Shown: piece by piece, positions 2,456 through 53,444 of the stretch
How the letters are laid out: each line of letters begins with the position of its first letter
Position numbering within the stretch: the first letter of the stretch is position 1
DNA from: Candidatus Brocadiia bacterium
GTDB taxonomy: Bacteria > Planctomycetota > MHYJ01 > JACQXL01
Direction: 5' to 3'
NCBI GenBank assembly: GCA_041658285.1
Contig: JBBAAP010000011.1
Coordinates: 3,308-67,307, forward strand
DNA length: 64,000 bases
The notes under the pieces: model-generated
What the model saw: the letters and a program-made list of their open reading frames with translations, nothing else
Told to the model about the DNA's origin: nothing
Databases searched by the model: none
Program-made: the position numbers and the translations under genes

Positions 2456-2459
2456 TAAC

Positions 2460-4357: not shown

Positions 4358-4399
4358 AGCAAGCCTCCTCTCAGAGCCGGTTGTTCCCGGGACAATCAG

Positions 4400-5290: not shown

Positions 5291-5291
5291 A

Positions 5292-6008: not shown

Positions 6009-6133
6009 ATTTTTCAGTATGCGGATTCAGCTGATTAAACTGATAATAATCCATACCAACGCAAGAATATCAGGAAGGGGTATCAGGGGATTTGGATATA
6101 AATTCCCTGATTCTCTGATCATCTTTTACACTG

Positions 6134-35452: not shown

Positions 35453-36076
35453 CTAAGGCGCGTATTTGGCGCACGGGTCGCTGTATGGACCCTGTCCGGC
35501 CGCGCCCACCCCGGCTACCCGGAACCAGAATTTGCCTCCGCTGGCCAGCCCGGTGATGGTGGCGGATGATTCAGTCACATTCGTTTTATGCTTCCAACTG
35601 GTAGGCACATTGGCGTCTGTGGTTATCTCAACCACGTAACTCCGGGCGCCGCGTACCGGTTTCCAGTTAAGGTCAATCTCGCCGTCATTATAGCCGGCTT
35701 TGGCGGATAACTTCTTCGGCGCTTGTAGTTCCCCAATCGGAGCGGCGATATGCCTGATATTCATTCCGGCCGAGGATATTTTCTGGTCATCGCCGACTGA
35801 TTCATTTTCAACGTAAAGCGATTCTAACATTAACGAACGGTCCAGTTCCTTTTCATCATTAGTCATCAAATCAGTCGCGGCCTTGGCCTGAGCGCGCTTA
35901 GATAATGCGTCATTATAAGATGTGCGCAAGGCGGTTGTTTTGGCCGTAATATCGGCCAGTGCCGGATTAGGCGTGGTGAAATTCGCATTGCCGGTCATCG
36001 CAGTGACAATCCGGGTAGCCAATGCAATCTTATCAGGAATTGGCATGCCCTTGAGACCTAACTTAACTTTTCCCAT
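35453..36076 (-). CDS. hypothetical protein with a C-terminal fibronectin type III domain
   Basis: 207 aa. No signal peptide. The FN3-like region (GEIDLNWKPVRGARSYVVEI...GGKFWFRVAGV) is followed by a ~25-aa tail to the stop. Confidence 0.45.
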   Translation of the reverse strand: MGKVKLGLKGMPIPDKIALATRIVTAMTGNANFTTPNPALADITAKTTALRTSYNDALSKRAQAKAATDLMTNDEKELDRSLMLESLYVENESVGDDQKISSAGMNIRHIAAPIGELQAPKKLSAKAGYNDGEIDLNWKPVRGARSYVVEITTDANVPTSWKHKTNVTESSATITGLASGGKFWFRVAGVGAAGQGPYSDPCAKYAP

Positions 36077-36199
36077 AGTTACGCCTTTTTTTCTTAGAGT
36101 CTGTTAATCCATACAGCGTTATGGCGCCGAAGCGCCATGGTCCCGAAAGCATTCGGGGCCACTTCCCACAACTTCATAGATTATTAATCTTACATAACA

Positions 36200-36460
36200 T
36201 CAAACTGCTCCAATGTCTCATAGGACTGCTCCAATCCTATGTCAAATTATTATAATTGCTCATAGGACTGCTCTAATCCTATGACAAATCACTCCAACAT
36301 CTCACAGGATTGTTCAAATCCCTCAAGGGATTACTATAATCCCTCGCAGGATTACCACAATCCCTTGAAGGACTACTATAATCCTTTATCGGATTGCTAT
36401 AATCCCTCATAGGATTGCTAAAATCCTTCAAAGAATCACCATAATTATGTGAATATTATA
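36200..36460. repeat. degenerate direct tandem array (about 22-bp unit, ATAATCCCTCATAGGATTGCT-like, about 11 copies)
   Basis: Visible by eye. Units contain the internal palindrome TCCTATG/CATAGGA. Confidence 0.75.
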
Positions 36461-36689
36461 CCATCAGCCAAAGGCTGATCCGCCTCAGGTGGAAAGTACC
36501 GTTACTTTGTCAACTCCATTAGATGTTTTATCTAGCATATTTTTAACTATCTTACCAGTTTTATTCATCAACGGATAACATAGTCATCCAGCGGGGTCAA
36601 TAATTGAGTGTTGAATATCTATAATTAGTGTCTCGTTAGTAGGTAGGTGCGGCAGGCAGGTTCCCAGAAATCTAAATTGTGAAGTACCC

Positions 36690-37814
36690 CTATCTTATTA
36701 TTTTTTTGATGCGGCTTACAGGCCAATATATTTTGCAGGTCTTCCCAATAATCTTTTCTTTTGGGATGGGGCCGTATTGGCGGCTGTCTTTGCTATTAGT
36801 TAAATTGTCGCCAATAACAAAATAGGTATTATTAGGAACCAGGTAAGGACCATAAGGCTCGGTATTTATTTGCTCTTCAAGCTGAGGGTATTCTTTGAAT
36901 AATTTACCGTTGACATAAGCTTTATTGCCTTTGACTTCAACGGTTTGGCTACCGTTGGCAATTATGCGTCTGATAAGTACCTTTTGGGGATCTTCCGGTG
37001 ATTCAAACGTAATAATGTCGCCGGGTTCAGGATTGGAAAACCTATAAGTCAGTTTTTCTACAATAATCCTGTCTTTCTCCATAATTGCCGGCTCCATTCC
37101 TTTTGTTGGAATGCGATATGTAACCAAAAGACTGGTAAGTAAGACATAAATAAAAACTTTATATAATAGCAAAAGAACTAAGAAGGTTATCAGTGTTTTC
37201 TTTGGTTCTTTTTGCGGTCTTTGCGCAGAAACAAAAGCATCGTAACAAACTATAAGACGGTATAATAATGCTAGAAGTAATGATACCCACCTATGTTGAA
37301 ATGTAATTTCATCAAGAAGAGCAAAGCCAATAATAAAAATAATGCCTTTTACCCATCTTTTACAATAAAGCTGGCCTACGCCCGGGAGTATATAAGAAAG
37401 AAAAACCGCCAACCAGGTGTTTTTCTGCGGCTGGTCGGCCGGAATGTCAGGCGGCAAGGAGGCGTTGTGATTGCGGACCAGTTTATGCGCATTAAATAAA
37501 TTCCAAATAGCCAATAAGACAGATAGCGTAAAAAAAAGGGCCGCCCAATGGAAAACTATCATTGGGCTGACCATCGAGTAAAATAAAGCAACTAACAATG
37601 AAAGATAGACAAACAGGATAGTTATTCCAATGGAGTTTCTTTTGGCGTATAGTTGGCCTGTGCCCGGTAAAATCCATGATAAACATACCGCCAGCCAGGG
37701 GTTTTTTACTTTTGCATTTTTCATATTTTCTTTTTTGTTCGGGGAGACTAAGACCGCTACAACTTTCCTTTCGCCTATCTTCCTCAAATTCCGGTGACAC
37801 CATATGAGCGCCAC
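36690..37814 (-). CDS. signal peptidase I (S26) homolog with substituted catalytic dyad and an extended N-terminal multi-TM region carrying a duplicated motif
   Basis: 374 aa. S26 boxes present: GMEPAI (canonical SMxPTL), GDIITF, LIRRIIANGS (canonical YIKRxxGxPGD), GDNLTNSKDSR. N-terminal repeats NPWLAVCLSWILPGTGQLYAKR and NTWLAVFLSYILPGVGQLYCKRW. Start codon uncertain (alternative Met at 37724). Confidence 0.65.
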   Translation of the reverse strand: MALIWCHRNLRKIGERKVVAVLVSPNKKENMKNAKVKNPWLAVCLSWILPGTGQLYAKRNSIGITILFVYLSLLVALFYSMVSPMIVFHWAALFFTLSVLLAIWNLFNAHKLVRNHNASLPPDIPADQPQKNTWLAVFLSYILPGVGQLYCKRWVKGIIFIIGFALLDEITFQHRWVSLLLALLYRLIVCYDAFVSAQRPQKEPKKTLITFLVLLLLYKVFIYVLLTSLLVTYRIPTKGMEPAIMEKDRIIVEKLTYRFSNPEPGDIITFESPEDPQKVLIRRIIANGSQTVEVKGNKAYVNGKLFKEYPQLEEQINTEPYGPYLVPNNTYFVIGDNLTNSKDSRQYGPIPKEKIIGKTCKIYWPVSRIKKIIR

Positions 37815-37844
37815 TCAATTCACTCGCTCTAATCACGACGGAAT

Positions 37845-37890
37845 AGTCGGGATAACGTGCCAGTAATTCATTTCGTTCAAACTGGCACTA
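37845..37890. repeat. GGGATAACGTGCCAGTA-N20-ACTGGCACTAACC hairpin element
   Basis: Near-identical to 2055-2098. Loop sequence matches the hairpin at 60056-60085. Confidence 0.65.
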
Positions 37891-37982
37891 ACCGTCGCTG
37901 GCGGAGAATATGAGCCATATTAGTTGCCTTCCAAGCTTATAATAGGGTAGTATACTTTCAGGTTTGGTCAATATAATATAAT

Positions 37983-38300
37983 ATGTATATTGTAGTATTC
38001 GTTACCGTTCCATCAGCTAAGATAGCCGGCGTTATTGCCACCGCCGTAGTCCAGGCCAAGTTAGCCGCCTGCGTTAATATCATTCTGTCCATAAGGTCGG
38101 TATATAAATGGAAGGGCAAGCTTTGCCGGGATAAGGAAGCGCTTATGGTCATCAAAACTAAAAAGACCTTGTTCCCTAAATTAGCCGATAAAATAAGGGT
38201 TATGCACCCGTATCAGGTCCCGGAAATAATAGGGTTGCCCATAATCGCTGGTAATAAGCCTTATTTGAAATGGCTGAATGCCGCTGTTAAGACGCGATAA
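37983..38300 (+). CDS. cutA: divalent-cation tolerance protein CutA
   Basis: 105 aa. ...AACVNII... and HPYQVPEIIGLPI signature of CutA1. Confidence 0.8.
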   Translation: MYIVVFVTVPSAKIAGVIATAVVQAKLAACVNIILSIRSVYKWKGKLCRDKEALMVIKTKKTLFPKLADKIRVMHPYQVPEIIGLPIIAGNKPYLKWLNAAVKTR

Positions 38301-38311
38301 TTGTTTTATTC

Positions 38312-38340
38312 TTGACAAATGAGAATTTATAGGCTATATT
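38312..38340 (+). promoter_or_regulatory. sigma70-like promoter (TTGACA-17-TATATT) upstream of the HEAT/polyferredoxin/NicO operon
   Basis: TTGACA at 38312-38317 and TATATT at 38335-38340. AGGAGG RBS at ~38348. ATG at 38363. Confidence 0.5.
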
Positions 38341-38362
38341 AACGCTAGGAGGATATGAAAAT

Positions 38363-40147
38363 ATGAGAAATTATGCATTGCTTGTACTGGTATTGGCATG
38401 TTTTATTTTTGTGCTGCCTTGGGAACAGAATAGCGAAGCCTGGTGTCCAAACCCGCCCAAGACTATGGGCAGTGAAGCCGCGCCGCCGTCTGTTAACCCA
38501 ACGCCTGTCCTGGTTTCTCGTCCGGCTCTGAGCATAGGTTTGATGCCGCGCATCCAGGCGATGAGAACGCCGGTTGGGCCGACTTTGGACGGTGTGGCTG
38601 AGACTTGGGAGGTTTGGTGGACTCTCAACCGCGATAAATTCTTCAGCTTCAAGCAGCCGATCGAATGGGTCAGCATCAAGAAGACCGACGGCGGTACCAC
38701 CTCAATAACCAAACATCCGATATACGAAGAACTTCTTAAACTCTTAAGGACCGCTTTAACCGAGAAGGATCAGACCGTTGCCTGGAACGCGGCGCTGGCT
38801 TTGGGCCGGAGCGGCGAACCAACGGTTTTGCCGGATTTACAGAAAGCGTTCAAGGAGAATAAGCAGATCCTGGTCAAGGACTACTCCATCCTGGGGCAGG
38901 GCTGGCTTAGAAGCAACGAAGCCCTGGAAATGTTGAAATCAGTCGCGCTCGATAATAAGGAACAGGAAGTCCTGCGCAGTCATGCGGTAGCGGCTTTGGG
39001 ATACCTGTCCGACCCGGCCGTATTCGGGATACTGAAAAGCATTATTGAAGACAAGGAAAACAAGAAATTCACGGACCTGCGAGCCGCTGCGGCGATAGCC
39101 ATGGGTTTTACCAAGGATAAGGACGCGGTAACCACGCTGGCTGGTTTGCTCAATAGCGCCGAGAAGGTGAATCCTAAAATCCGCAGTTATGCGGCTATGG
39201 GCCTGGGCCGAATCGGCAATGAAGGTGCTTTCAATGAACTTAAGAAGGTTATGGCCGATCGTGACAACAGTGTCAGGGTATCCGCAGCCATCGCTTTGGG
39301 TATGATGAGTGTCGGCCCGGTTGGTTCAGCCAATGAGCCGAAAAAGATTCAGGATGAGCTGATCAGCCTTCTGAAAGACAAGCAGGGTATTATCCGCGGT
39401 CTGGCGGCCATATCACTGGCTCAGATCACGGTTAAAAATAAGGAAGTAATGGATACAAAAACCATCGTTCCGGCTCTATCCAAGGCTTTGAAGGATACCA
39501 AAACCGCCGATGGCGACGGCTTGATTGTCCTGGCCATGGGCATCCTCGGTGACGAATCATACAAGGCCGAATTCAAGAGCATAATGGAGGACCGTAAGAA
39601 GCGCCAGCTTCTCAAGGCGGCCGTAGTTATGGCTACTGGCTTGATGAAAGATAAAAGCCAGGCGCCGACCTTTATCGCTATGCTTAAGAAACAGTCCGAT
39701 GACCCAATTATGTCTCCGTATCTGATAATGTCGTTAGGCATGATCGGCGACGAAAAAGCACTCGAAGCCATCGAACCGATTTGGGCCAAGGTCGATAAAA
39801 ATGTCACTTCATTAGCCTATACCAATATGGCTGTGGCCATGTCCATGCTGGGCAAGAGAAGCGAAATCGTTGCTCAATTAATCCAACATACCAAGAGCAA
39901 TAATGATGCGCTTAAGCAGTATGCTTGCCACACGCTGGGTATGCTGGGCGACCGGGATTCGGCCAAGACTTTCGTGGAAAATTACAACAGCGAGAAGAGC
40001 GATACCAATAAAGCGTTTATCATCACCGGTATCGGATTTCTGATGGAAAAGGCGTCTTCACCTATAGTAGCTGAGTGGACAGGTAATAATAACACCGAGA
40101 TCTCGACGTTGATTATCGACCATTTATTGCCATTGCCCACCTGGTAA
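38363..40147 (+). CDS. secreted HEAT/PBS-lyase-type repeat protein (paralog A)
   Basis: 594 aa with signal peptide. Many AALALGRSG / AAMGLGRIG HEAT-like repeats. Shares WEVWWTLNRDKF and C-terminal IDHLLPLPTW with the next gene. Confidence 0.65.
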   Translation: MRNYALLVLVLACFIFVLPWEQNSEAWCPNPPKTMGSEAAPPSVNPTPVLVSRPALSIGLMPRIQAMRTPVGPTLDGVAETWEVWWTLNRDKFFSFKQPIEWVSIKKTDGGTTSITKHPIYEELLKLLRTALTEKDQTVAWNAALALGRSGEPTVLPDLQKAFKENKQILVKDYSILGQGWLRSNEALEMLKSVALDNKEQEVLRSHAVAALGYLSDPAVFGILKSIIEDKENKKFTDLRAAAAIAMGFTKDKDAVTTLAGLLNSAEKVNPKIRSYAAMGLGRIGNEGAFNELKKVMADRDNSVRVSAAIALGMMSVGPVGSANEPKKIQDELISLLKDKQGIIRGLAAISLAQITVKNKEVMDTKTIVPALSKALKDTKTADGDGLIVLAMGILGDESYKAEFKSIMEDRKKRQLLKAAVVMATGLMKDKSQAPTFIAMLKKQSDDPIMSPYLIMSLGMIGDEKALEAIEPIWAKVDKNVTSLAYTNMAVAMSMLGKRSEIVAQLIQHTKSNNDALKQYACHTLGMLGDRDSAKTFVENYNSEKSDTNKAFIITGIGFLMEKASSPIVAEWTGNNNTEISTLIIDHLLPLPTW

Positions 40148-40158
40148 AGGAGGGTCTA

Positions 40159-42042
40159 ATGAAGCGATTTCAAATCCTGGTTAGTGTTGGTGCAATTGTC
40201 CTGGCCATTCTATTCCTGACCGACAGCTTTATCTTCGGCTCCTGCCCGGGTTCGATGTTTTTCCGGCGCTCGCAAGCCAATCCTGAACCGGCCCAACCTA
40301 ATAACGATACTACTGAGACTAAGAAGGAAGAGCCTAAAAAGACGCCCGAGGTGGCCGCCGAGCCCAAGAAGGAAGAGCCTAAACAAGAATCCTCGACTGA
40401 AGCCACGCCGACTGCCATCAGCGCCGTCCGGCCGCCTTTAGGCAGCGGATTACAGCCGCGCATCACCAGCCTGCGCACCTTAGCCAACTCCGATGGCCAG
40501 ATTATGACTCTGGCCGGCATGGTCGAACCCTGGGAGGTATGGTGGACGCTTAACCGCGACAAATTCCTCAACTTCAGACAGCCGATTACGTGGGTTACTG
40601 TCAAGGAGTCGGAGGGCAGCAGGTCAGTCATCATACTGCCCATATACAAGGAACTTTTAGAAATATTAAAATCAGCCCTTAACGAAAGGGATTATACCCT
40701 GGTTTGGAATGCCGCCCTGGCTTTGGGCCGTTGCGGCGACCCCGAGGCGATACCTTTACTTCAGAAGGCGTTTAACGATACCGAGCACCCGCTGGTCAAG
40801 AATTATACACTGGTTAGCCTGGGTTGGATAAGAGACCCGTCTGCGGTGGATTTCCTTGCCGGCAAGCTTACTGACAAGAAAACACAGGAAATCGTCCGGA
40901 GCCACGCCGCGGTCGGCCTGGCCTATATCAACGAGCCGGGTTCGCTCAAGGCTCTGAATGAAACCATCAACGAAAAGGAATACCGCAAACAGGCAGACGT
41001 TGTTTGCGCCGCCGCCTACGCGTTGGGATTGCTTAAGGATAATTCTGCCGTCAAGACTCTGGCTGCTTACCTGAGCGGCGAGCTGAAATCAGATACCCGC
41101 ATCCGTTCCTACGCGGCTTTGGCCCTGGGACACATCGGCTCCAAGGATGCCTTCCAGGAGCTGAAGAAGTCCGCCGGCGATAAGGACAGGGGAGTGCGCA
41201 CATCAGTGGCCATTGCCCTGGGTTTGATGGAAGAACCCAAGGCCAAGGATGAGCTGCTTAATATGCTTCAGGACAAGGACGAGGTCATCCGGGGCATGGC
41301 GGCCCTGGCCCTGGCCGAGTCAACCCTGAAATATCCCGATAAGGCGCACAGCCAGAAGATGGTGTCAGACAACATTCTTAAATGCTTTGGTAATTGCAAG
41401 CGCGATGGACAGGGCTTGACCATAATTGCCCTGGGCATCCTGGGTGAATCTAAGATAAAACCGGAATTGCGCAAAATGCTCGAGGAAAAGCGGAAACCGC
41501 GCGCCGTCAAGGGCGCGGCCATAATGGCTTATGGTCTGCTGAAAGACAAGGAAGCCGTGCCGTTGCTGATGGATCTGCTTAAGACCACACCCGACGACCC
41601 GATACTGGCGCCTTATGCCATACTGGCCCTGGGCATGATCGGCGACGAAAAGGCCGTGGCATCAATCCAACCGCTCTGGGACCGGGTCGACAAAAACGTC
41701 AGCGCTGTGGCCTATTCCAATATGGCCGTATCGCTGTCCATGCTCGGCAAACGCAAGGAAGTGCTGGATCAACTGGTCAAGCATTCGGTCAAAGGGCAGA
41801 GCGACACCTTGAGACAATATTCATTGCATACGCTCGGCCTGCTGGCTGACAAGGAAGCGGCCCAGGCCTTTGTGGAGGCCTATAAAGAAGGCGATACCAA
41901 CGCCAAGGCCAACGCCGTGGTTGGCATCGGACTGCTTATGGAAAAGAACTCCATACCGCTGGTGACCCAATGGCTGGCCGACAATAATACCGACATATTT
42001 ACCTGGATAATCGACCATCTTCTGCCGATTCCGACGTGGTGA
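40159..42042 (+). CDS. secreted HEAT/PBS-lyase-type repeat protein (paralog B) with a Glu/Lys/Pro-rich linker
   Basis: 627 aa. Collinear with paralog A (WEVWWTLNRDKF ... IDHLLPIPTW). Extra KKEEPKK repeat region. Confidence 0.65.
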   Translation: MKRFQILVSVGAIVLAILFLTDSFIFGSCPGSMFFRRSQANPEPAQPNNDTTETKKEEPKKTPEVAAEPKKEEPKQESSTEATPTAISAVRPPLGSGLQPRITSLRTLANSDGQIMTLAGMVEPWEVWWTLNRDKFLNFRQPITWVTVKESEGSRSVIILPIYKELLEILKSALNERDYTLVWNAALALGRCGDPEAIPLLQKAFNDTEHPLVKNYTLVSLGWIRDPSAVDFLAGKLTDKKTQEIVRSHAAVGLAYINEPGSLKALNETINEKEYRKQADVVCAAAYALGLLKDNSAVKTLAAYLSGELKSDTRIRSYAALALGHIGSKDAFQELKKSAGDKDRGVRTSVAIALGLMEEPKAKDELLNMLQDKDEVIRGMAALALAESTLKYPDKAHSQKMVSDNILKCFGNCKRDGQGLTIIALGILGESKIKPELRKMLEEKRKPRAVKGAAIMAYGLLKDKEAVPLLMDLLKTTPDDPILAPYAILALGMIGDEKAVASIQPLWDRVDKNVSAVAYSNMAVSLSMLGKRKEVLDQLVKHSVKGQSDTLRQYSLHTLGLLADKEAAQAFVEAYKEGDTNAKANAVVGIGLLMEKNSIPLVTQWLADNNTDIFTWIIDHLLPIPTW

Positions 42043-42054
42043 TAAGTATTTTTA

Positions 42055-42594
42055 ATGAAATGGTTCCGATATTGGCTGTTCCTGCTTGTCCTGGGACTTT
42101 ACCCGCCTGATGCCTCGGCGCACCACGCCGGGCTTACCGGCATCCAGAAGGAACTAATTGCCGCCAACGCGCATCTGCCGCATACCAGCCTCAACGCTAT
42201 TTATAAGGATTACAGCCTTTTCGTGACTATTCTGGACCGGGCGCCGGATACGGTTGACCTGATGTTATATCTTGAGGACAATCTTAAGCGCCCGATATTC
42301 GGCAAGAGGGCGGTGGTCATCGAGGATGCGGACGGCAAGCCGGTCTTCAGCAGTTTTCTGGAGCCTGACGATACCGGCATCTTTTACCTGCGGTATTCGT
42401 ATGACCGTCCGCTCAAAGGACGGCTCAAGGTGTCTTATGAACCGGTTGGTGGTTCAGGCACTCCGGCCCAATGGCTCCAGACCGATATCCAGCTCGGTTC
42501 GCCGGCGCCGAGCATAACTTTCCTGATAGTGATTGGTCTGGTCTTGCTGGCAACCATAGTGGCAGTTAAGATGAGACGCGGAGAAATAACCTGA
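42055..42594 (+). CDS. small periplasmic protein with a C-terminal TM anchor
   Basis: 179 aa. Signal peptide, mature N-terminus HHAGLTG (possible metal ligand), C-terminal TM ITFLIVIGLVLLATIVAV. Confidence 0.4.
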   Translation: MKWFRYWLFLLVLGLYPPDASAHHAGLTGIQKELIAANAHLPHTSLNAIYKDYSLFVTILDRAPDTVDLMLYLEDNLKRPIFGKRAVVIEDADGKPVFSSFLEPDDTGIFYLRYSYDRPLKGRLKVSYEPVGGSGTPAQWLQTDIQLGSPAPSITFLIVIGLVLLATIVAVKMRRGEIT

Positions 42595-43892
42595 TGAATA
42601 TCTTAGGTAACCGGCTAAAGCGGATGATTATCAGTCCTTATCTGATATTTATCTTCCAGCTTGTCTTTGTTGGATTCCTGCTTCTGATTATCATCAGCGG
42701 ACTGTTCGGCAACGTTTATCGTAACATCAATACCTGGCTGACCGGACTGGGCTGGATGGTCTTCATCACTCTGATGATACTCGTCAGCGGCAAGAGCTGG
42801 TGCCTGGTCTGTCCCTGGAACACTATGGCCCTCTGGCTCCGGCGGCTGAGATTATGGGGAGTCTCGGCCCAGGTCTTTTCGCTCAACCTTAAATGGTTCA
42901 GCCCGCTGCGCAATATCTGGATAGCCTCGATATTGCTCGGCGCCATCATCGGGCTGGAGTATGTCTTCAATATGACCGACAGCCCGCGCCTGACCGCCTA
43001 CATCGCCCTGATAATCCTGATAGCGACCGTTATCTCGGCCTTGCTGTTAGAGCGCCAGTCGTTCTGCCGCTATGTCTGCCCGGTCGGCGCCGTGTCCGGC
43101 GTTTACAGTATGCTGGCTCCGCTGGAACTGCGCAGCGCCGACAAGGATGTTTGCCAAAAATGTGCTACCAAGGACTGCATCAAGGGTAATGCCCGCGGCT
43201 ATGCCTGCCCGGTCTTTGAATATCCGGGCAATATGGATACCAGCCTTTATTGCATCCTCTGCACCGAGTGCATCCGGACCTGTCCCAACAATAATATCGC
43301 CGTCAATGTCCGTTCGCCATTCAGCGAGCTGTCCGGCCTGAGCCGGAACGCGGAATTCCCGCTGGCCCGCAATCGGAGCGAAATATGGATGATTGTCCTG
43401 CTCCTGTCAATGACGCTCTTCGGAGCCGTGTCGCTCAGCCCGCGCTACCAGGCCATCACCGTGCAGATGGGGCAGTGGCTCGGTTTTAACGTGGGCATAT
43501 CGCTGATATTCAGCCTGAGCGTTCTCCTGGGCATCATACTATTTATCATTGCCAACTACGGATTCCGGCGTGGCGTTTACGCCGTCATTCCGTTGACCTT
43601 GTTCTTCCATCTGGCCAATACCATGAAGCTGGTCGACCTTAGGGCATCCGAGATAGTGGCGCTGATATCCGACCCCTTTGGTCTGCGCTGGAACCTCTTC
43701 GGTACGGCCGGGCATCTGCCCGCACCGCTAATGGCGCCGGCCACGCTCTGGTCAATCAACACCGCATTGATAGGGCTGGGCATAGTTGCCACTCTCTGGC
43801 TGGCATTGAGGATGCGCATAAAAGTGCCCGGTATCCTGGTTCTGCTGATATTTGCTTTAATTGCTGGATATTTCCATTGGATTTTACTATGA
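42594..43892 (+). CDS. NapH/NosR/MauN-like polyferredoxin integral membrane protein
   Basis: 432 aa, multi-TM. CLVCPWN and CRYVCPVG (CxxCP motifs in TM regions) plus two ferredoxin-type clusters CQKC...C...CP and CILCTECIRTCP. Confidence 0.65.
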   Translation: MNILGNRLKRMIISPYLIFIFQLVFVGFLLLIIISGLFGNVYRNINTWLTGLGWMVFITLMILVSGKSWCLVCPWNTMALWLRRLRLWGVSAQVFSLNLKWFSPLRNIWIASILLGAIIGLEYVFNMTDSPRLTAYIALIILIATVISALLLERQSFCRYVCPVGAVSGVYSMLAPLELRSADKDVCQKCATKDCIKGNARGYACPVFEYPGNMDTSLYCILCTECIRTCPNNNIAVNVRSPFSELSGLSRNAEFPLARNRSEIWMIVLLLSMTLFGAVSLSPRYQAITVQMGQWLGFNVGISLIFSLSVLLGIILFIIANYGFRRGVYAVIPLTLFFHLANTMKLVDLRASEIVALISDPFGLRWNLFGTAGHLPAPLMAPATLWSINTALIGLGIVATLWLALRMRIKVPGILVLLIFALIAGYFHWILL

Positions 43893-45454
43893 ATAGAAAT
43901 ATGAAGTATAGACTGCTCGGTTTGCTCATGGTCTTGATGCTGCTGGCCGGCGGGCTGGCCCAGGCGCACGACATCTCCGACCGCCAGGTTCAGGGCATCA
44001 CCAACAGCGTCCAGCTCAGCGTCTGGCAGGACCTGATATTCATCGATTATTGGATTGCCATCGGCAACCTAGAGGCCGTCAACTACTTACCCATCATTGA
44101 TGTCGACAAGGATGGCGAGATAACCGATGATGAGAAACTGGCCTATCTCGAAGTCATCCGTCAGAAGGTGGCCAACTCGGCCTTCTCGCTGACCATCGAC
44201 GAGGCGCGTAACCTGCCGTTCAAGCAATGGAAGCCTGGCACCATCACGGTGGACGAAAGCAAAGACGCGGCCGTGCCCATAAAAATCGGGCTGGAGTTCG
44301 TGCTCGATTTCGAGACATTACCCGCTACAGCGGGATGGCGCTCTGCGTTCACAACCCACCCCATAACCAAGGCGCAGGAGCACAACCTGACCTTCTTCAT
44401 CGGCAATGTCATGGACAAGAAGGTGCTTACCAAGGTTTATGTTAACCAGGACGAATGGATTGGCATCAACTGGACGCCCGAAGACTACCGGCACTGCCTG
44501 GGCCTGAGCAGCGGCATCTATCTCAAGCCCTACGAATCCAGCTGGGCCAAGTTCGCATTTTCCCTGCTGGACAAGCCGGCCGGGGCGCCGTCGCCTTTTG
44601 CTTTTAATATGACCCCGGTCAAGCCGTCCAGCCAGCAGAACCTCAAGGTCGAAGGCCTGCTGTCAGGCGACCTGACCTTCCTGATAATCCTGGGCGCGCT
44701 GGCGGCCGCATTCATCTACGGGGCCGGGCACGCCCTGGCGCCCGGACACGGCAAGACCCTGGTGGCCGCCTACCTCATCGGCTCCCGCGGCACGGTCTGG
44801 CAGGCCATACTCCTGGGCCTGATTGTCACCTTTACCCACATATTTACCGTAGTAGTGGCCGGTGTGATTGCCCTGGGCGCATCCAGCTATGTCCATCAGG
44901 CTGCACTGAGCACCTACCTGGGCGTCGTATCCGGCCTGATTATCGTCATCCTGGGCGTGTGGATATTCGTGTCGCGTGCCTTCGGCAAGGGCGATGGGCA
45001 TCATCATGGACATGACCACGAACATGAACACGGTCATGACCATGATAACGAGCATGAGCATACCGAACATTCGCACGAACATAGTTTGCCTCAGCCGATT
45101 ACCGGAGAGAAAATAAAGCTCAAACATCTTATCGGCCTGGGCATCAGCGGTGGGTTGGTTCCTTGCCCGACCGCCATATTCATACTCCTGCTGGCCGTTA
45201 ACTTCAAGAAGACAGTATGGGGACTGGTACTCATCGGCGCCTTCAGCCTGGGCCTGGCCGCGGTGCTGATTGCCATCGGCATCCTGATGGTCACCGGTTC
45301 GTCCCTGGTCAATCGCTTCTCGGCCGGAAGCAAGGTAATCAAGATTCTTGGCATCATCAGCCCGATAATAATTACCGTTATCGGCTTGGCCATCGTTTTC
45401 AAGACCTTTATTGATGCCGGCATAATAATAATCAATCTCCAGGCAATGCCTTAA
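43877..45454 (+). CDS. NicO/RcnA-family nickel/cobalt transporter with an extra ~250-aa N-terminal extracytoplasmic domain and His-rich loop
   Basis: 525 aa. GAGHALAPGHGKT and GGLVPCPTA RcnA signatures. HHHGHDHEHEHGHDHDNEHEHTEHSHEH loop. Start overlaps the previous gene by 16 nt. Confidence 0.65.
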   Translation: MDFTMNRNMKYRLLGLLMVLMLLAGGLAQAHDISDRQVQGITNSVQLSVWQDLIFIDYWIAIGNLEAVNYLPIIDVDKDGEITDDEKLAYLEVIRQKVANSAFSLTIDEARNLPFKQWKPGTITVDESKDAAVPIKIGLEFVLDFETLPATAGWRSAFTTHPITKAQEHNLTFFIGNVMDKKVLTKVYVNQDEWIGINWTPEDYRHCLGLSSGIYLKPYESSWAKFAFSLLDKPAGAPSPFAFNMTPVKPSSQQNLKVEGLLSGDLTFLIILGALAAAFIYGAGHALAPGHGKTLVAAYLIGSRGTVWQAILLGLIVTFTHIFTVVVAGVIALGASSYVHQAALSTYLGVVSGLIIVILGVWIFVSRAFGKGDGHHHGHDHEHEHGHDHDNEHEHTEHSHEHSLPQPITGEKIKLKHLIGLGISGGLVPCPTAIFILLLAVNFKKTVWGLVLIGAFSLGLAAVLIAIGILMVTGSSLVNRFSAGSKVIKILGIISPIIITVIGLAIVFKTFIDAGIIIINLQAMP

Positions 45455-45456
45455 AT

Positions 45457-47601
45457 ATGTTCAAGCTTTCTAAAATCTGCGGTATTCTCTGTGTTCTCTG
45501 TACATTCGCTACGCTCAGTATAAACGTCTCAGTGGCAAATATTTACGCTGATCAGAACACGGACGCCCTGATTCAGAAGCTGTCAGCCAAGGACATCAAA
45601 ACCCGCCAAGAGGCCGTGCAGGAAATAGGCAGGCTTAACAACATCACCGGCGCGCGGCTGCTCCTGACCGCGGCCGACGACCGAGAGCTCCAGCCGGCCA
45701 TCATCCAATCGCTGTCCCTGTTTACCGACACAGCCGTGGTCAGGTTCTTGCAGTCCGAGGCGCTGGTTTTTCCCAACAACAACATCCGCCTGATTGCTGC
45801 CGGCGCTTTGGCCGGGGCCGACCTCAAGGGTGACGAGTATTACCGGCAGGTAATCATCCCGCTGTTCAAGTCATTGACCGATTCCTTCGTCGAGGTGCGC
45901 CTGGCCGTGCTTGAAGCCGTCAGCAACTATATTTCGCCCCGGCACACACCCCAGCGGATAGATAAGGACAACGGCATCTTTCCTATGCTGTTCCGGGCGC
46001 TGGATGATTCGGACTATCCCCAGGTGCGCGAGGGGGCTGTCTATGTCTTAATCAGGTTCATCGCCAACCAGGATATACTCAACCGGTTGCTGGAACGTTA
46101 CCGGTTCGAGGACAACCTGACCGTGCTATGGACCATCGAAGAACTGCTGGTCGAGAAATCCGGCCCGCAGACGCTTGAATACCTGGCCGATGCCGGGTTA
46201 AGCCATAACTCCATGCTCATCCGGGCGCTGTCCGCCAGGATTCTGGGCCGGCTCCGGGCTGATAAATACCTGGAACGGCTCCAGCCCGATTCGTCCGACA
46301 GCCGCGACGTTATTGCCGACAAGGCCTGGGCGCGGACCCAGATAAAACCGGCCACCAGCTGGCTCGCAATATCCGGCACGGCATTCACCTATGCTAAACT
46401 GCCGCCCATCCTGGGGTTGCGGATGAACGAGGCCAAGGAAAAGGCCTTGCGCGCCCGCGGCGCCTTGCTCCAGACCGAGCAGGCCGTGGCCAAGGGGCTC
46501 GACTGGTTGGTCCGGAACCAGGAAGACAACGGCTCCTGGAGCTGTGCCCGTCATAACCCCAGCCACGGCAACCTGTCACTGCCCGGGTTTACCTTTGACG
46601 AGGACGAACTGCTCGACCCGTCCGTGACCGGACTGGCTCTGTTGGCATTAATGGCATCGGGTAATACTCACCGCTACGGCCCGCATCACGATGCCGTGGA
46701 AAAGGGTATGAACTACCTGATTTACTGCCAGGACAAGGCCGGATGCATCAACCTGGCCAAGGACCACGTCCACGACAAACGCTGTCTTCGGAGCGGCGAT
46801 GACCACGGCGTGCTGGTCCGGCGTTACAACCACAACATCGGCACCATGGCGCTGGTGGAATTATACGCCATGACCGGTGACTCGGCGTTGAAACCCTACG
46901 CCCAGCAGGCGCTCGACCACTCGAGAGAATATGTCCTGCCCGAGTTCGGCTGGTCGTTCTACCTGGAGCCGACCGACATCGGCCCGAGCATATTTTATAT
47001 CTTCGCCCTGAGGATGGCCGGTGAAACCGACCTGATGGTCTCGCCGGACGACCTGACACGGGCTAAAAAATATATCAAGACCCTGACCGACCCGAAGACC
47101 GGCCGGATTCTGCATATCTGTCCCATACCGGTCTGCTACGGCGGGTTCGACAGCACCGCTAGCGGCATCGTCGCCCGGTTTTTGATATCGCCTTATGACC
47201 AAACCGAGCTTAAGGATGTCCAGTCAAAGGCGCGCGAATTCCTTAAAGGCCATCCGCCGGTCTGGCGGCCGATGTACCAACTGCCGTCCGATATGTGGGC
47301 CAGCCAGTTCATCCGGGGCGATATTCTCAACGAGTGGTACTGGTATTACGCCACGCTGGGGTTGCTGGCGATGACTTGTAGTGAGAGTAGCGAATCTAAC
47401 GGACCCGAATGGCAGTCCTGGAACCGGACGATGCAGTCGTTGTTATTGAAGCACCAGCGGCAGGGCGGCGACTGGGACGGCTCCTGGGACCCGGACGGGC
47501 CCTGGGCCAACGTCGGCGGACGGGTCTATTCCACCGCCTTTGCGGTGATGACATTACAGGCGTATTATAGCTATGATTTAGTGCCAGTGCGAACGAAGTG
47601 A
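45457..47601 (+). CDS. secreted HEAT-repeat protein with a C-terminal alpha/alpha-toroid (prenyltransferase / terpene-cyclase-like QW-motif) domain
   Basis: 714 aa with signal peptide. AKGLDWLVRNQEDNGSWS (QW motif) and HQRQGGDWDGSWDP...GGRVYSTAFAVMTL. Confidence 0.55.
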   Translation: MFKLSKICGILCVLCTFATLSINVSVANIYADQNTDALIQKLSAKDIKTRQEAVQEIGRLNNITGARLLLTAADDRELQPAIIQSLSLFTDTAVVRFLQSEALVFPNNNIRLIAAGALAGADLKGDEYYRQVIIPLFKSLTDSFVEVRLAVLEAVSNYISPRHTPQRIDKDNGIFPMLFRALDDSDYPQVREGAVYVLIRFIANQDILNRLLERYRFEDNLTVLWTIEELLVEKSGPQTLEYLADAGLSHNSMLIRALSARILGRLRADKYLERLQPDSSDSRDVIADKAWARTQIKPATSWLAISGTAFTYAKLPPILGLRMNEAKEKALRARGALLQTEQAVAKGLDWLVRNQEDNGSWSCARHNPSHGNLSLPGFTFDEDELLDPSVTGLALLALMASGNTHRYGPHHDAVEKGMNYLIYCQDKAGCINLAKDHVHDKRCLRSGDDHGVLVRRYNHNIGTMALVELYAMTGDSALKPYAQQALDHSREYVLPEFGWSFYLEPTDIGPSIFYIFALRMAGETDLMVSPDDLTRAKKYIKTLTDPKTGRILHICPIPVCYGGFDSTASGIVARFLISPYDQTELKDVQSKAREFLKGHPPVWRPMYQLPSDMWASQFIRGDILNEWYWYYATLGLLAMTCSESSESNGPEWQSWNRTMQSLLLKHQRQGGDWDGSWDPDGPWANVGGRVYSTAFAVMTLQAYYSYDLVPVRTK

Positions 47602-47661
47602 GCTTACTGGGACTTATCCCCGAAGCCGTTAGGCGGAGTGGGATAATTTTAACCGCTGATT

Positions 47662-48141
47662 ATGCGTATTAATGCGGATAATATGAAGATAGTTAATATT
47701 ATAATTATCGTCGCGATAGGGGTGATGATGTCTTCGTGCCGGAAGGTGGATGATGTTCCGGTGGCGGGCTATATCACCAACCAGCCGGGCCTATCGGCCT
47801 ACAGCGACCCGTCCGGGCTGACCGAAGAGTACCGGCTCTGGCTTGACTCCGCGCCTTTGATAAACTATTCAGAAAATCTTAAATATGGCATCGTGGTCAT
47901 CAACGGGTTCCTGGCCCAGGGCGATGATGCGGTTATGACCAAGAAACTGTCCATTACGGTCAATCTGGCGGATATCAGGGATGACGGCGTCAAGAAGGTC
48001 GAACTGATGTCCGGGTATAAGTTGAAAGGCGTCCGGCACCGGCTCTCGGTGACTTTAAGCTTTATGGATTACAGCACCATCACGCCCGCCGGCGCTCCCG
48101 GCGCTACCAAGGATATAACTCTGCCGGTGTATGTATACTAA
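47662..48141 (+). CDS. hypothetical lipoprotein
   Basis: 159 aa with lipobox MMSSC. Confidence 0.4.
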   Translation: MRINADNMKIVNIIIIVAIGVMMSSCRKVDDVPVAGYITNQPGLSAYSDPSGLTEEYRLWLDSAPLINYSENLKYGIVVINGFLAQGDDAVMTKKLSITVNLADIRDDGVKKVELMSGYKLKGVRHRLSVTLSFMDYSTITPAGAPGATKDITLPVYVY

Positions 48142-48297
48142 ACATAGCAGCTTGCTTAAGAAAACAGTGCCTTGGAACCCGCTCAAATAAAGGGAAAGAA
48201 AATGTGGTGTCCTTATCCCTAAAGGGAGGCTTACGCTCCAGGAGGCCGGTAGGCTCTGTTTCCAGCCCCAACGATTATTTTTAAAGCAATAATTTTC

Positions 48298-48333
48298 TTG
48301 ACTTATTTAGTATTTTAGTGGATACTAAAATAC
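48298..48333 (+). promoter_or_regulatory. promoter-like TTGACT-17-GATACT overlapping a perfect 10-4-10 inverted repeat (GTATTTTAGT-ggat-ACTAAAATAC) that abuts the ATG
   Basis: Palindrome at 48310-48333 ends 1 nt before the start codon at 48334. Candidate ArsR-type operator, possibly on a leaderless transcript. Confidence 0.45.
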
Positions 48334-48675
48334 ATGAATAAAGCTTCGGGCATCCAGGAAATCACGAAAATATGCAAAGCCCTCTCGGTCGACAAGCGGG
48401 TGCGTATTATTCAGGTGCTGATGGGACGTTGTCTGTGCGTCGGCGCTATCTCATCGCAATTCGGAATATCGGCAGGGGCGGTATCGCAGCATCTCCGCAT
48501 TCTCAAAGAAGCCGGTTTGATAGAAGCGGAAAAACGCGGTTATTACGTCCATTATCGCATTAGAACCGGTACGCTGTCTAAATGGCGTTCCAGCATCGGG
48601 AAACTGATTGGAAAACCTATAGCCCCATTTAAAAATGTCAAGATGCAACGATGCACGATGTCTAAAATAAAATGA
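48334..48675 (+). CDS. ArsR/SmtB-family transcriptional regulator
   Basis: 113 aa. VRIIQVLMGRCLCVGAISSQFGISAGAVSQHLRILKEAGLI HTH with Cys pair. Confidence 0.8.
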   Translation: MNKASGIQEITKICKALSVDKRVRIIQVLMGRCLCVGAISSQFGISAGAVSQHLRILKEAGLIEAEKRGYYVHYRIRTGTLSKWRSSIGKLIGKPIAPFKNVKMQRCTMSKIK

Positions 48676-50051
48676 GCGCCAATAGAATATTCGCGGTGAC
48701 GTTTTCCTGGCTCTTGGCCATGAGCTATTTCGGCTGCGCCAGCCAGCCGGTCACCGGACCGGATTACAAGTCCTTGAACTCAAATCCCAAGTCGGCCCCG
48801 ATGCCTAGTTCCGTCCGTGGCGGCATAGCCCGTGGAAAATTGACATTGGATGATTGCCTGAGAATCGCCCTGGAGAACCATCCCAAATTGAAAATATACC
48901 AGACCAAAATCAAACAGCGTCAAGAATCGTACAATTCAGCAAAGGCGTTGGATTACCCGGTATTAAGTCTATCCACGAGTTACGACCGTTTATCCTACGT
49001 CTCGCCGGTCAAAAGGCAATTCCTGGGCGATTCGAACAATGATTACCAGGTCAGCCTGAACATTGAATCCCCGATATTCACCGGCGGCAGAATCACGGCC
49101 GAAAAGGAACAGGCTAGGTACTCGATAAACGGCGCCCGAGAGGATTATCGCGGCACCGAACTCGAAGTGATTCACGGCGTCAAATCGGTCTATTATAAAT
49201 TATCCGTGGCCGAAGAAATGGTTGCCATCCGGCAGGATTTATCGGCCAAGCTGAACGCTTTCTGGGAAATCGCCAAAGAGCTCAACCAGCGGATGAAAAC
49301 GCCCCGGGAAGAAGTGCTCCTGCGGATTGAAGTGCAAGTTAACAACGCCGAGCAGGAATTAATCAATGCCCAAACCAACGTCAGGATACTAAAAGAACTC
49401 CTGCTCAATGCCATGGGTTTGAACCCCGGCGGGCAAACGCAGATGGAAATACAGGCTATTGATATGTCCCGGCAATTACCCGGCGACCCAAGCCAGGAGA
49501 ATATGGATTTGAACGCAGGCAATAATCCCGACCTTTTTAAGCTGGAGCAGGAGCTGAAAAGGGCTCAGGAATCGGTCAGCCTGGCCCGGAGCGAGTATTT
49601 CCCGCAAGTCAAGTTGCGCGGTTCGTACGGCTACGAATGGGCGACGCTCCCGCCCGAAAGGGATACTTGGAGTTTCGGGCTGGTAATGAACCTGCCGCTT
49701 TGGGATTGGGGGCGTGTTAATTCCAAGGTCAAACAGGCCAACGCCTATCTGGAAGAAATAAACGCGACCAAGGAGTTCACGGAGCAAAAAGTATCACTCG
49801 AAGTCAAAAGCGCTTTCCTTGACTACCAATCAAGCCGGCAAAGGGCCCGGATTGCATATGACAGTTTGAGCAAGTCCAGCAAGAGCCTGGACATCTTCGA
49901 ACAAAGGTATAAAGACAACACCGTGACCAGCCTGGACGTTCTGGATGCCTACCAGTCCTACGCCACGGCCCGGTCGAATCACGCCCAGGCGGTATTGTCG
50001 ATGTATTTATCCCAGGCCGCGCTCGAACGGCTTTTAGGTAAAACCAAATGA
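48672..50051 (+). CDS. outer-membrane efflux protein (TolC/OMF family)
   Basis: 459 aa with lipoprotein-like signal. Two-fold repeat of the OEP motif, and coiled-coil segments. Confidence 0.75.
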   Translation: MSANRIFAVTFSWLLAMSYFGCASQPVTGPDYKSLNSNPKSAPMPSSVRGGIARGKLTLDDCLRIALENHPKLKIYQTKIKQRQESYNSAKALDYPVLSLSTSYDRLSYVSPVKRQFLGDSNNDYQVSLNIESPIFTGGRITAEKEQARYSINGAREDYRGTELEVIHGVKSVYYKLSVAEEMVAIRQDLSAKLNAFWEIAKELNQRMKTPREEVLLRIEVQVNNAEQELINAQTNVRILKELLLNAMGLNPGGQTQMEIQAIDMSRQLPGDPSQENMDLNAGNNPDLFKLEQELKRAQESVSLARSEYFPQVKLRGSYGYEWATLPPERDTWSFGLVMNLPLWDWGRVNSKVKQANAYLEEINATKEFTEQKVSLEVKSAFLDYQSSRQRARIAYDSLSKSSKSLDIFEQRYKDNTVTSLDVLDAYQSYATARSNHAQAVLSMYLSQAALERLLGKTK

Positions 50052-53000: not shown

Positions 53001-53110
53001 TGGAAATGCTCCAGCCATTAGCCATAGTCATCATCGGCGGCCTGGGGTTCGGTATGGTGCTGACGCTTTTTGTGATTCCGGCAGTTTACCTGACGCTTCA
53101 TAAACATTAG
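50048..53110 (+). CDS. RND efflux transporter permease (AcrB/CzcA superfamily)
   Basis: 1020 aa. 12-TM topology with two large periplasmic loops. TM4 GLVLAVGMLVDNAIVMLENI. Overlaps the OMF gene by 4 nt. Confidence 0.9.
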   Translation: MNISDLSIKRPIGVLVLTLTVVILGLFFLSTISVDLLPRITYPMVRIVIDWKGASPEEVEENITKKVEASVATTEDAVMVISNSIEGNTSLEVSFEFGKDMDIALQDTRAKLDLIKKELPKDADEPKIFKADPSNLPIVDVAVFSETRDERYLRQWVENDLSNYFLGITGLGSIVTSGGKIREIQIVFNQEKIQRYEISTDQVLAALKAGNIELPTGRITAGEKEYTVRLLAKFNNMEEIKNTIVANREGWLIKVADVAEVTDSYEEQRVLTRFNNQPCVLMSFFKQPNANTVRIVSGIEKKAKELKRKKIIPDDINYAVASSQAYYIVNSINNVSSSAIIGSILAILAIWFFLHDIKRTLIIGIAVPVSILGTFILMGFFDLTLNIFSLGGLVLAVGMLVDNAIVMLENITRHQKDSDDPKEGARSGSREVISALAASTLTNVAAIVPFFLITGLSALLFRDFVITITVAFVISLLVSLTVVPALSAHLIKPINPNAAQTLSMRFLDGLTIFYKRLLQSALKHRVILFGSVLMMLAFSLFLIGRIGREFLPPMDDGKVTVKLKMPIGTALEKTNQVTKKIEELIKSMPGVEKFYTQAGGYWYRKNIYEKANESELQIQLLPKAKRPLATNEFVKKLQKKIKDQSIPKAKIKVMRTPLKGIRTTSTSDIDVRVKGYNLDKLYGIARDIQDKIKDVAGLSNLDISIDLSKPELHIILDREKMSYFGLTANNVSEMLKAAVDGAVNTQFTDKELNVDYDIRLLVNPLALNSKDTVENIILYPPNKAEIRLKEIGRVEISEGPVQIDRENQVRLVEITGDATGRNVGLITSDVKSRLGALTLPQGYTINYGGEAESISQSNNQLIIVIILAIFLVFVVMAVQYESLIDPLVIMITLPLTLIGAAVFMAATGTTFGATAFLGLILLVGIVVNNAIILVEYINILRREQGRNIHDAVLEAPPIRLRPILMTNLTTIVGLLPIVLGWGEGLEMLQPLAIVIIGGLGFGMVLTLFVIPAVYLTLHKH

Positions 53111-53123
53111 AAAAGGAGAGGCT

Positions 53124-53444
53124 ATGAAAATAGGAGTGGTAATTTCGAGTAATGATGCCGAGACCTGCTGGAATGCGCTGAGATACGCCAACTATTGCAT
53201 CGGGCAGAAGGATGAAGTCAGGGTATTCCTTATGGGTAAAGGAGTCGAATACCAGAAGGTCAGCACCGACAAATTCAACAACATCGAGCAAGCCGCTAAA
53301 ATCATCAAATCAGGCGGCAAGGTTTTCGCCTGCGGAACGTGCATCAAATCCCGGGAGCAGGAAAGCTCGGAAATGTGCCCGATGTCGACCATGAAGGATA
53401 TGTACGAGATTGTCAAAGAGAGCGACAAGGTCGTGACTTTCTGA
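53124..53444 (+). CDS. DsrE/DsrF-like sulfur-relay fold protein
   Basis: 106 aa. MKIGVVISSNDAETCWNALRYA...FACGTC motif. RBS AAGGAGAGG upstream. Confidence 0.6.
   Translation: MKIGVVISSNDAETCWNALRYANYCIGQKDEVRVFLMGKGVEYQKVSTDKFNNIEQAAKIIKSGGKVFACGTCIKSREQESSEMCPMSTMKDMYEIVKESDKVVTF

Follow-up and report, generated by a model that had tools for sequence, protein, structure and literature searches.

Organization of the operon

The subject of this study is an operon in a 64,000-nt stretch of DNA, referred to here as the window, from a Candidatus Brocadiia bacterium (GCA_041658285.1, contig JBBAAP010000011.1, positions 3,308 to 67,307 of the forward strand). Seven co-directional genes, which we call H1, H2, S3, PF4, Nic5, HT6, and X7, lie on the plus strand at 38363-48141 of the window. 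An initial annotation, made from the sequence alone, had described six plus-strand genes lying head to tail, and open reading frames (ORFs) were found exactly at those positions; X7 is added here as the seventh gene. H1 (38363..40147, 594 aa) and its paralogue H2 (40159..42042, 627 aa) encode HEAT-repeat proteins that are predicted to be tethered in the periplasm. S3 (42055..42594, 179 aa) encodes a putative anchored periplasmic domain with a His tip, PF4 (42594..43892, 432 aa) a polytopic membrane polyferredoxin, and Nic5 (43889..45454 from an ATG, 521 aa) a NicO permease of the RcnA type. HT6 (45457..47601, 714 aa) codes for a secreted protein with HEAT repeats and a toroid, and X7 (47662..48141, 159 aa) for a small lipoprotein-like protein (...MMSSC). 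Profile hidden Markov model (HMM) searches with each protein confirmed HEAT_2 in H1 (141 bits) and H2 (173 bits), Fer4_5 in PF4 (35 bits), NicO in Nic5, and HEAT_2 (47.9 bits) together with SQHop_cyclase_C (29.4 bits) in HT6, while S3 matched no Pfam or NCBIfam model and X7 no Pfam model. All seven products carry a signal or anchor segment or are polytopic and are thus secreted or membrane proteins.

The genes are separated by gaps of 2-12 nt or overlap by 1-4 nt, the exception being the 60 nt before X7; the gaps are 11 nt between H1 and H2, 12 nt between H2 and S3, and 2 nt between Nic5 and HT6, and S3 and PF4 overlap by 1 nt. The initial annotation had started Nic5 at a TTG at 43877 (43877..45454, plus strand, 525 aa). 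This ORF exists, but the ATG at 43889 is the more likely start because it forms an ATGA overlap with the stop codon of PF4 and because the gene call in L001 is of 521 aa (loci and contigs used for comparison are denoted by L and a number, and compared proteins by P and a number). The promoter TTGACA-17-TATATT that had been described upstream of the operon (38312..38340, plus strand) is a sigma-70-like site known from its match to the consensus only; it agrees at 11 of 12 positions, is the top match within 37700-48700, and sits between cutA and H1. Downstream of it an AGGAGG precedes the ATG at 38363. A search for internal terminators found none that was convincing, there being 13 terminator-like sites compared to 11.8 expected from shuffled sequence. 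The cutA gene (37983..38300, plus strand; PF03091, 121.6 bits), which codes for a CutA1 divalent-ion tolerance protein, is a conserved upstream neighbor, probably with a separate transcript, and X7 is probably the last gene of the operon. The same DNA is present in the Logan assembly of SRR8449812, proteins identical to Nic5 and HT6 have been deposited from a 'Candidatus Brocadiia bacterium' metagenome-assembled genome (MAG), and the close homologues all come from Planctomycetota MAGs.

Conservation of the operon and its division into two modules

The window operon is a fusion of two modules, module A consisting of the HEAT proteins, S3, and PF4 and module B consisting of Nic5, HT6, and X7, since the two lie apart in more distant relatives. 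The complete block cutA-H1-H2-S3-PF4-Nic5-HT6-X7 was found in the ENA metagenome contig L090, where PF4 is 74% identical to that of the window. The upstream synteny of L090 is that of the window, and downstream of the block it has an ABC transporter instead of the ArsR-OMF-RND-DsrE genes. The block is also partly present in L007, where only one HEAT gene occurs in the order cutA-H1-S3-PF4-Nic5 and the contig then ends (PF4 82% identical), and in L006, which has S3-PF4-Nic5-HT6-X7 (PF4 49% identical). The presence of the block in L090, and of parts of it in L007 and L006, removes the objection foreseen in the initial annotation that it might not be conserved in any other genome. In L007 and L090, as in the window, the first HEAT gene has cutA directly 5' of it, and homologues of X7 directly follow HT6 in L090 (2e-61) and L006 (3e-07).

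The view that the genes form one indivisible system did not hold, because in GCA_016235865.1 HEAT-S3-PF4 is on contig L002, surrounded by housekeeping genes, and Nic5-HT6 is on contig L087. Pairs of Nic5 and HT6 were found in L006, L087, L088, and L090, the pair standing alone in L088, and HEAT-S3-PF4 was found in L009 and L010 and, in a metagenome scan with the H1/H2 family, in L091, L099, L102/L103, and L108. The order of PF4 and Nic5 and the overlap of their codons are kept down to 49% PF4 identity, and this suggests that the two are functionally coupled in this lineage. The conserved core is S3 and PF4 and not the six genes.

The polyferredoxin PF4 and its relatives

Twelve Cys residues of PF4 were invariant in 26 aligned sequences, namely, those of C70xxC73P and C158xxxC162P and the eight further residues C187/190/195/205 and C220/223/226/230, which suffice for two clusters. 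The initial annotation had described two CxxCP motifs, one of which is in fact CxxxCP. Also invariant were His339 and the loop SDPxGxxWNLFG, which reads SDPFGxxWNLFG in the window. By a crude hydropathy estimate the loops that carry the Cys motifs are K/R-rich, which puts these motifs on the cytoplasmic side, where NapH and CcoG have theirs. The only Pfam match was Fer4_5; Fer4_18 and FixG_C gave none. The NapH models TIGR02163 (53.6 bits, cut-off 213) and PRK09477 (49 bits, cut-off 234) were not reached, and both the first motif, which is CxxCP where NapH has CX3CP, and the spacing of the first cluster are non-canonical. On the other side, hhalign aligned PF4 to the FixG-like protein of L060 with 92.5% probability (E 4.9e-07, 125 columns). 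By sequence, PF4 is thus placed in the NapH/CcoG superfamily but in neither of the two families.

A scan of GTDB with the PF4 alignment gave at least 552 candidate stretches with relatives of PF4, which come from species-level genomes of many bacterial phyla and some archaea. Many of these relatives have two or three N-terminal YHS domains; an N-terminal NosL domain was found in the archaeal L020 and an HMBD domain in P0085. In the Paenibacillaceae locus L060 an S3-PF4 pair occurs together with genes for a FixG-like protein and an oxidase subunit of the COX1 type. The YHS, NosL, and HMBD fusions and the YcnI/CopD and FixG/COX1 neighbors are associations of the copper type. The YcnI/CopD neighbors are those of the Nitrospinota locus L016, where an S3-like protein, a PF4 homologue, a DUF1775/YcnI protein (55.7 bits), a CopD-like protein, and a second anchored beta-sandwich protein with an AHH tip are encoded at 2410-6403. 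We regard this locus as a compact copper-type version of the module.

Relatives of S3 and PF4 were also seen at the end of a Nap-like operon, found in the 10 kb upstream of the PF4 homologue. This operon codes for a cytochrome b, a cytochrome c with multiple haems and about 930 aa, a NapA/Fdh-like molybdenum (Mo) enzyme that is exported by TAT and scores far under the NapA cut-offs, and two NapG-like ferredoxins, and it ends with a NapH-like protein that carries an S3 domain followed by a YHS-polyferredoxin. It was seen in L013, L015, L017, L019, L025, L028, L048, L057, L059, and about 30 more loci, from Planctomycetota, Phycisphaerae, Latescibacterota, Hydrogenedentota, and others.

The S3 domain

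S3 is made up of a signal peptide, the tip ASA-HH, an Ig-like beta-sandwich, and a C-terminal membrane anchor. Pfam (E up to 0.01) and NCBIfam gave no match, DUF1775 (PF07987) and CopC included. In an AlphaFold2 model built from nine sequences (pLDDT 83.8) a flexible tip is followed by eight strands at 43-147 and a helix at 154-178, and the top Foldseek matches of this model were DUF4426, then generic Ig-like domains, and weakly the copper proteins CrdA and CueP. S3 was rejected as a member of a known copper or Ig family since it had no Pfam or NCBIfam match, no significant Foldseek match, and no match to a FixG-like protein in hhalign.

A search with the single S3 sequence gave only 11 relatives among 1.84 billion representatives, and the family became visible only by neighborhood-guided HMM iteration from the S3 alignment. 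With the iterated HMM, 79 of 92 loci had an S3-type domain directly beside the gene of the PF4 family, nearly always immediately upstream, and these loci range from Planctomycetota to archaea and Paenibacillaceae. We regard S3 and PF4 as obligate partners. The domain occurs in three forms, as a free protein of 150-240 aa, as the C-terminal part of NapH-like polyferredoxins with 500-650 aa, and as an N-terminal fusion to PF4 (L011). After the hydrophobic segment the consensus starts AxA-HHILGLPHYSYKENYPQ, of which the window protein keeps ASA-HH, and in one subclade the tip is replaced by CxxCGC. Such conservation of the tip, as AxA-HH or CxxCGC, is what would be expected for a metal site, and we consider the tip a candidate for one.

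In two Hydrothermarchaeota loci (L020, 3776-7348; L021, 4829-7995) the PF4 homologue is preceded by three small proteins in a row, each with a signal peptide, a beta-sandwich, and a C-terminal anchor. The third has a mature N-terminal AH, and in L020 it is detected by the S3 HMM.

The extended permease Nic5

Nic5 scored 59.3 bits with NicO (PF03824; gathering score 27.7). With the RcnA model PRK10019 it scored 114.5 bits, below the cut-off of 195, covering positions 18-279 of the 283 in the model. The initial annotation had asked whether the transport motifs would survive careful alignment, and they do, HALxPGHGKTxVxAYL and GISGGxVPCPxA being invariant in 29 extended homologues. The central loop is rich in His, Asp, and Glu and is predicted to be cytoplasmic. 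The N-terminal domain of about 225 aa, which would be periplasmic, has an EF-hand-like motif, DxDxDGxIxxxE, of which D75 and E86 are invariant in the same 29 sequences, as is His31, with which the mature protein is predicted to begin after signal cleavage. This N-domain gave no Pfam match even at E 0.1, and canonical RcnA does not have it (PMC11247825). A relationship between the N-domain and S3 was rejected, the probability being 1.8%.

Could the operon serve for nickel or cobalt detoxification, in line with the capture, reduction, and export suggested in the initial annotation, with Nic5 exporting the metal and the periplasmic proteins sequestering it? The closest named model to Nic5 is indeed that of an efflux transporter, RcnA, in which the His-rich loop is also predicted to be cytoplasmic (PMC11247825), and cutA lies upstream. 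Against efflux, the distant relatives of extended NicO occur in uptake-type clusters and not with RcnR or RcnB: they follow NikR-DUF4198-CbiM-CbiQ-FmdE-CbiO (L089, P0153) and, in L139, ZnuA with ABC-3. HEAT proteins recur near these distant genes. Moreover, no reduction step for which a polyferredoxin would be required is accessible to Ni(II), and the RND/ArsR flank is not conserved. We therefore consider an efflux operon highly improbable.

The HEAT proteins and HT6

H1 begins with an N-terminal hydrophobic segment followed by WCPNPP. H2 is 47% identical to H1 and has a Pro/Glu/Lys-rich linker after its anchor. In the H1/H2 family a hydrophobic N-terminus is followed by (G/A)-W/C-C-P and often by such a linker, and PWEVWWTxNR, three His residues, and a C-terminal HLLPxPxW are invariant. 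These features suggest that the family consists of tethered periplasmic solenoids, which may be lipoproteins. The bilin-lyase equivalog models scored far under their cut-offs with the HEAT proteins, and for this reason they are not taken to be CpcE/F or NblB. Two to four tandem HEAT copies were found in L090, L092, L093, L094, and L106 and solitary copies in L104 and L105. In the arrays of two to four H-type paralogues in L092 (8065-15130), L093, L094, and L106 every member combines the anchor motif (G/A)-x-C-P with a Pro-rich linker.

HT6 has a HEAT solenoid at about 33-296 and an alpha/alpha toroid of QW-type repeats at about 320-706, and in its AlphaFold2 model (pLDDT 84.8) a HEAT solenoid likewise precedes a toroid made up entirely of helices. 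The score with SQHop_cyclase_C was borderline (cut-off 26.1) and that with TIGR01787 (40.1 bits) did not reach the cut-off of 322.7. An HT6 profile matched squalene-hopene cyclase with an E of 1.7e-17, in seven short segments of QW-type repeats only. The initial annotation had suggested that the operon delivers a metallocofactor to a terpene-cyclase-like protein; in that case HT6 would be catalytically active as a class II terpene cyclase or in prenyl transfer, with an isoprenoid of the envelope as substrate and the rest of the operon supplying its cofactor. The matches to SQHop_cyclase_C and of the profile to squalene-hopene cyclase are what speaks for an enzyme. They are, however, confined to hairpins of the QW type, the DxDD motif is absent from the toroid in all eight orthologues, that is, HT6 and seven others, the TIGR01787 score is far from its cut-off, and HT6 is secreted. 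The lone D.DD in these proteins is DDDD at residue 167, in the N-terminal part of P0253. HT6 was rejected as a cyclase because it has no DxDD and the similarity is at the level of the repeats only, and the chance that it is such an enzyme appears extremely small.

The residues H553-x-C555-x4-C560 are invariant among the eight aligned orthologues, seven of which are known to lie beside Nic5, and are a candidate metal or disulfide site. C363, H405, H459, H488, and H666 are also invariant among the eight. In a wider alignment of the toroid family none of these residues falls in an invariant or near-invariant column.

A possible function in redox-assisted metal trafficking

We tentatively propose, at somewhat less than even confidence, that the window operon encodes an envelope metal-handling machine put together from two modules and serving redox-assisted trafficking of metal in the periplasm. 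S3 would be an Ig-like domain of the periplasm, anchored in the membrane, that exposes two His residues at its N-terminus after processing, and S3 and PF4 together would have the architecture of CcoG, a polyferredoxin with a periplasmic Ig-like domain, in two polypeptides. The pair may transfer electrons to or from a metal ion or metal center held at the periplasmic face, Cu(II)/Cu(I) being the most likely metal for it; the initial annotation had named nickel and cobalt, over which the comparative evidence favors copper in the case of S3-PF4. H1 and H2 could be periplasmic scaffolds or chaperones for this step. Nic5 would be an RcnA-type divalent-metal permease, with its own His-tipped, EF-hand-like domain capturing or releasing the ion, and HT6 would be its non-catalytic HEAT and toroid partner with a conserved His/Cys patch. 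Translational coupling in the window lineage would then mean that redox conditioning and membrane passage act on the same metal pool, the purpose being either reductive acquisition or supply to periplasmic metalloproteins. The structure of the genes, their domains and motifs, their conservation, and the patterns of co-occurrence are observed; which metal is handled, which way electrons and ions move, and what the HEAT and toroid proteins do are what we infer. The link to metals as such, drawn already in the initial annotation, has independent support from the YHS, NosL, and HMBD fusions and from the YcnI/CopD and NikR-CbiMQO/ZnuA neighbors, and not from the ArsR-RND-DsrE flank that had been cited there along with cutA.

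Several observations weigh against this proposal. The block has no regulator that ties it to any metal, and Rfam (E up to 1) gave no match in 37700-48400, so no riboswitch was seen there; in the whole window Rfam found two tRNAs only. The metal signals conflict, being of the copper type among PF4 relatives, Fur-FeoAB in L004, and of the Ni or Zn/Mn type around extended NicO. The PF4 clade of the window has lost the YHS domain. S3 matched no structure of the PDB in Foldseek at E up to 0.001 (best E 1.9e-3), hhalign found no relation between the S3 profile and the FixG-like protein or FixG_C, and in the NapH-S3 fusions the HH motif is internal unless the protein is cleaved. Coupling of modules A and B is optional, since they are on separate contigs in GCA_016235865.1. 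Furthermore, the S3-PF4 relatives that end a Nap-like operon in about 40 genomes fit respiratory electron transfer equally, and in L004 (and L005) the genes for Fur, FeoB, and FeoA come directly after S3-PF4.

The Nap-like operons bring up the main rival, in which S3-PF4 is a NapH-like quinol dehydrogenase or a NosR-like device for electron delivery that feeds or repairs a redox partner in the periplasm, with no free metal as substrate. The HEAT proteins would then be docking adaptors, the HH tip an interaction or cofactor site, and Nic5-HT6 an independent Ni/Co homeostasis unit that is merely co-transcribed. This would agree with the fact that PF4 and the upstream S3-bearing protein score best with NapH/MauN models, with the cytochrome b, multihaem cytochrome c, NapA/Fdh-like enzyme, and two NapG-like ferredoxins of those 40 or so genomes, and with the separation of the two modules in one genome. 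The window at 33-54 kb, however, has no NapG, Mo enzyme, or cytochrome partner, the NapG- and NapA-like genes being found only in distant relatives; the YHS/NosL/HMBD fusions and YcnI/CopD neighbors are hard to explain without a metal; and the PF4-Nic5 order with its overlapping codons is preserved to 49% PF4 identity. On balance electron delivery of the NapH type seems to us rather unlikely.

The Fur-FeoB-FeoA genes point instead to iron. S3-PF4 could reduce ferric iron outside the cytoplasm or serve, like FtrD, as an electron sink, with Fe(II) passing to the permease, and in FtrABCD a metal-binding protein of the periplasm is indeed combined with a permease and a polyferredoxin of the membrane (PMC7415376). 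The association with Fur and Feo is, however, limited to one lineage, there is no homologue of Ftr1/EfeU or P19, proteins of the NicO/RcnA type are not known as iron carriers, CcoG reduces Cu(II) and not Fe(III), and the domains fused to the relatives are of the copper type. An iron system is thus improbable.

Redox-assisted metal trafficking can be put in a more definite form, in which S3-PF4 is a widespread, hitherto undescribed trans-membrane metal reductase, a 'split CcoG', that passes electrons to a His-His site on the tethered Ig-like domain in the periplasm and is coupled in this operon to an RcnA-type permease with a His-tipped capture domain and to HEAT and toroid metallochaperones. 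In this full form we consider it unlikely.

Comparison with characterized systems and significance

The initial annotation had stated that a polyferredoxin, a NicO/RcnA-type protein with a periplasmic extension, and alpha-solenoid proteins together correspond to no characterized pathway, and we came to the same conclusion: no characterized system associates HEAT proteins with an extended RcnA and a HEAT-toroid protein. All the folds belong to known superfamilies and hence the block is not categorically new. The S3 domain, however, has no family model, and its pairing with PF4 is widespread. In the literature library that was searched no paper combined 'polyferredoxin' and 'YHS domain', and a search on HEAT, NapH, and Planctomycetes yielded nothing relevant.

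The CcoG protein of Rhodobacter capsulatus is a Cu(II)-specific reductase that does not act on Fe(III) and has two [4Fe-4S] clusters and an Ig-like periplasmic domain whose role is unknown (PMC7558416). The likeness to CcoG/FixG, and to the shorter YccM, lies in the Cys-Pro motifs of the Fer4_5 type, two Cys clusters of the [4Fe-4S] type, the periplasmic Ig-like domain, and the copper-related gene contexts among PF4 relatives. Here, however, the Ig-like domain is the separate, C-terminally anchored S3 with its HH tip, unrelated in sequence to FixG_C, and PF4 has about five extra C-terminal helices and the SDPFGxxWNLFG loop. There is also no cco (ccoNOQP-GHIS) context around the block. NapH/NapG, like MauN, NosH/NosG, and NosR, provide the best-scoring named models and have the same order of Cys-Pro motifs and clusters, and relatives of PF4 sit behind NapG-like and NapA-like genes. 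The differences are that PF4 is far under the cut-offs and has CxxCP as its first motif, that the block has no NapG or NapA, and that the C-terminal membrane domain of PF4 and the S3 partner are extra.

Nic5 shares with E. coli RcnA HALxPGHGKT, GGxVPCPxA, and the His-rich central loop predicted to be cytoplasmic, and differs in its N-domain, in the lack of RcnR and RcnB, and in having HT6 as a partner. FtrABCD and P19-Ftr1 follow the same logic, a single operon joining a metal-binding protein of the periplasm to a permease and a polyferredoxin of the membrane, but S3 is not homologous to P19 nor Nic5 to Ftr1, and there is no cupredoxin. YcnI (DUF1775) and CopC-CopD resemble S3 in the beta-sandwich, the N-terminal His after signal cleavage, and the C-terminal anchor, and a true DUF1775 and CopD pair lies beside the PF4 homologue in L016; S3, however, matches neither DUF1775 nor CopC, has two His residues at its tip, and shows a weak fold match to CrdA/CueP. 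The helical hairpin repeats of the QW type in HT6 are those of the squalene-hopene cyclase and prenyltransferase toroid, from which HT6 differs in having no DxDD in the toroid, in being secreted, and in its fusion to HEAT repeats. The arrangement of a solenoid and a toroid in HT6 recalls the alpha and beta subunits of protein prenyltransferases.

To our knowledge, hardly any specific bacterial metal reductase has been described. If our proposal is correct, S3-PF4 would be a natural 'split' CcoG with an obvious candidate for a metal site on its Ig-like domain, and S3 would define a new protein family. The proposal would also explain the YHS- and NosL-polyferredoxin fusions that are now annotated just as '4Fe-4S binding protein', and HEAT-repeat proteins of the periplasm would gain a function, as would the extended N-terminus in one subclass of RcnA-like transporters. 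A 'split CcoG' acting with a permease would be a bacterial counterpart of the reductase-plus-permease logic of metal uptake in eukaryotes. If the pair is merely an accessory in electron transfer, the outcome would be a useful correction of annotation and otherwise ordinary.

Genes flanking the operon and its modules

Downstream of the operon, at 48334-53444, the window has genes for an ArsR-type regulator, an outer membrane factor (OMF) of 459 aa, an RND pump of 1020 aa, and a DsrE-like protein, with no membrane-fusion (HlyD-type) gene between those for the OMF and the pump. This ArsR-OMF-RND-DsrE set was rejected as part of the system since it is not syntenic in L090, and the argument that it places the operon in a metal neighborhood fails for the same reason.

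In L087 (14061-17124) and L088 (14581-17728) the Nic5-HT6 pair is followed by genes for HSP20 and Lon protease. Divergent from it and upstream are genes for a PAS/GAF sensor, an anti-sigma-type HATPase, a Ser/Thr kinase with an FGE-sulfatase domain, and a HEAT protein of 313-325 aa. This neighborhood is kept in the two genomes.

Upstream of the operon, at 35453-37814 of the window, AP_endonuc_2 and cutA are separated by two minus-strand genes, which code for an fn3-domain protein and a signal peptidase of the S26 type, in a low-GC stretch (0.396 over 36001-38000). This stretch looks like an insertion because in the syntenic L090 cutA directly follows AP_endonuc_2.

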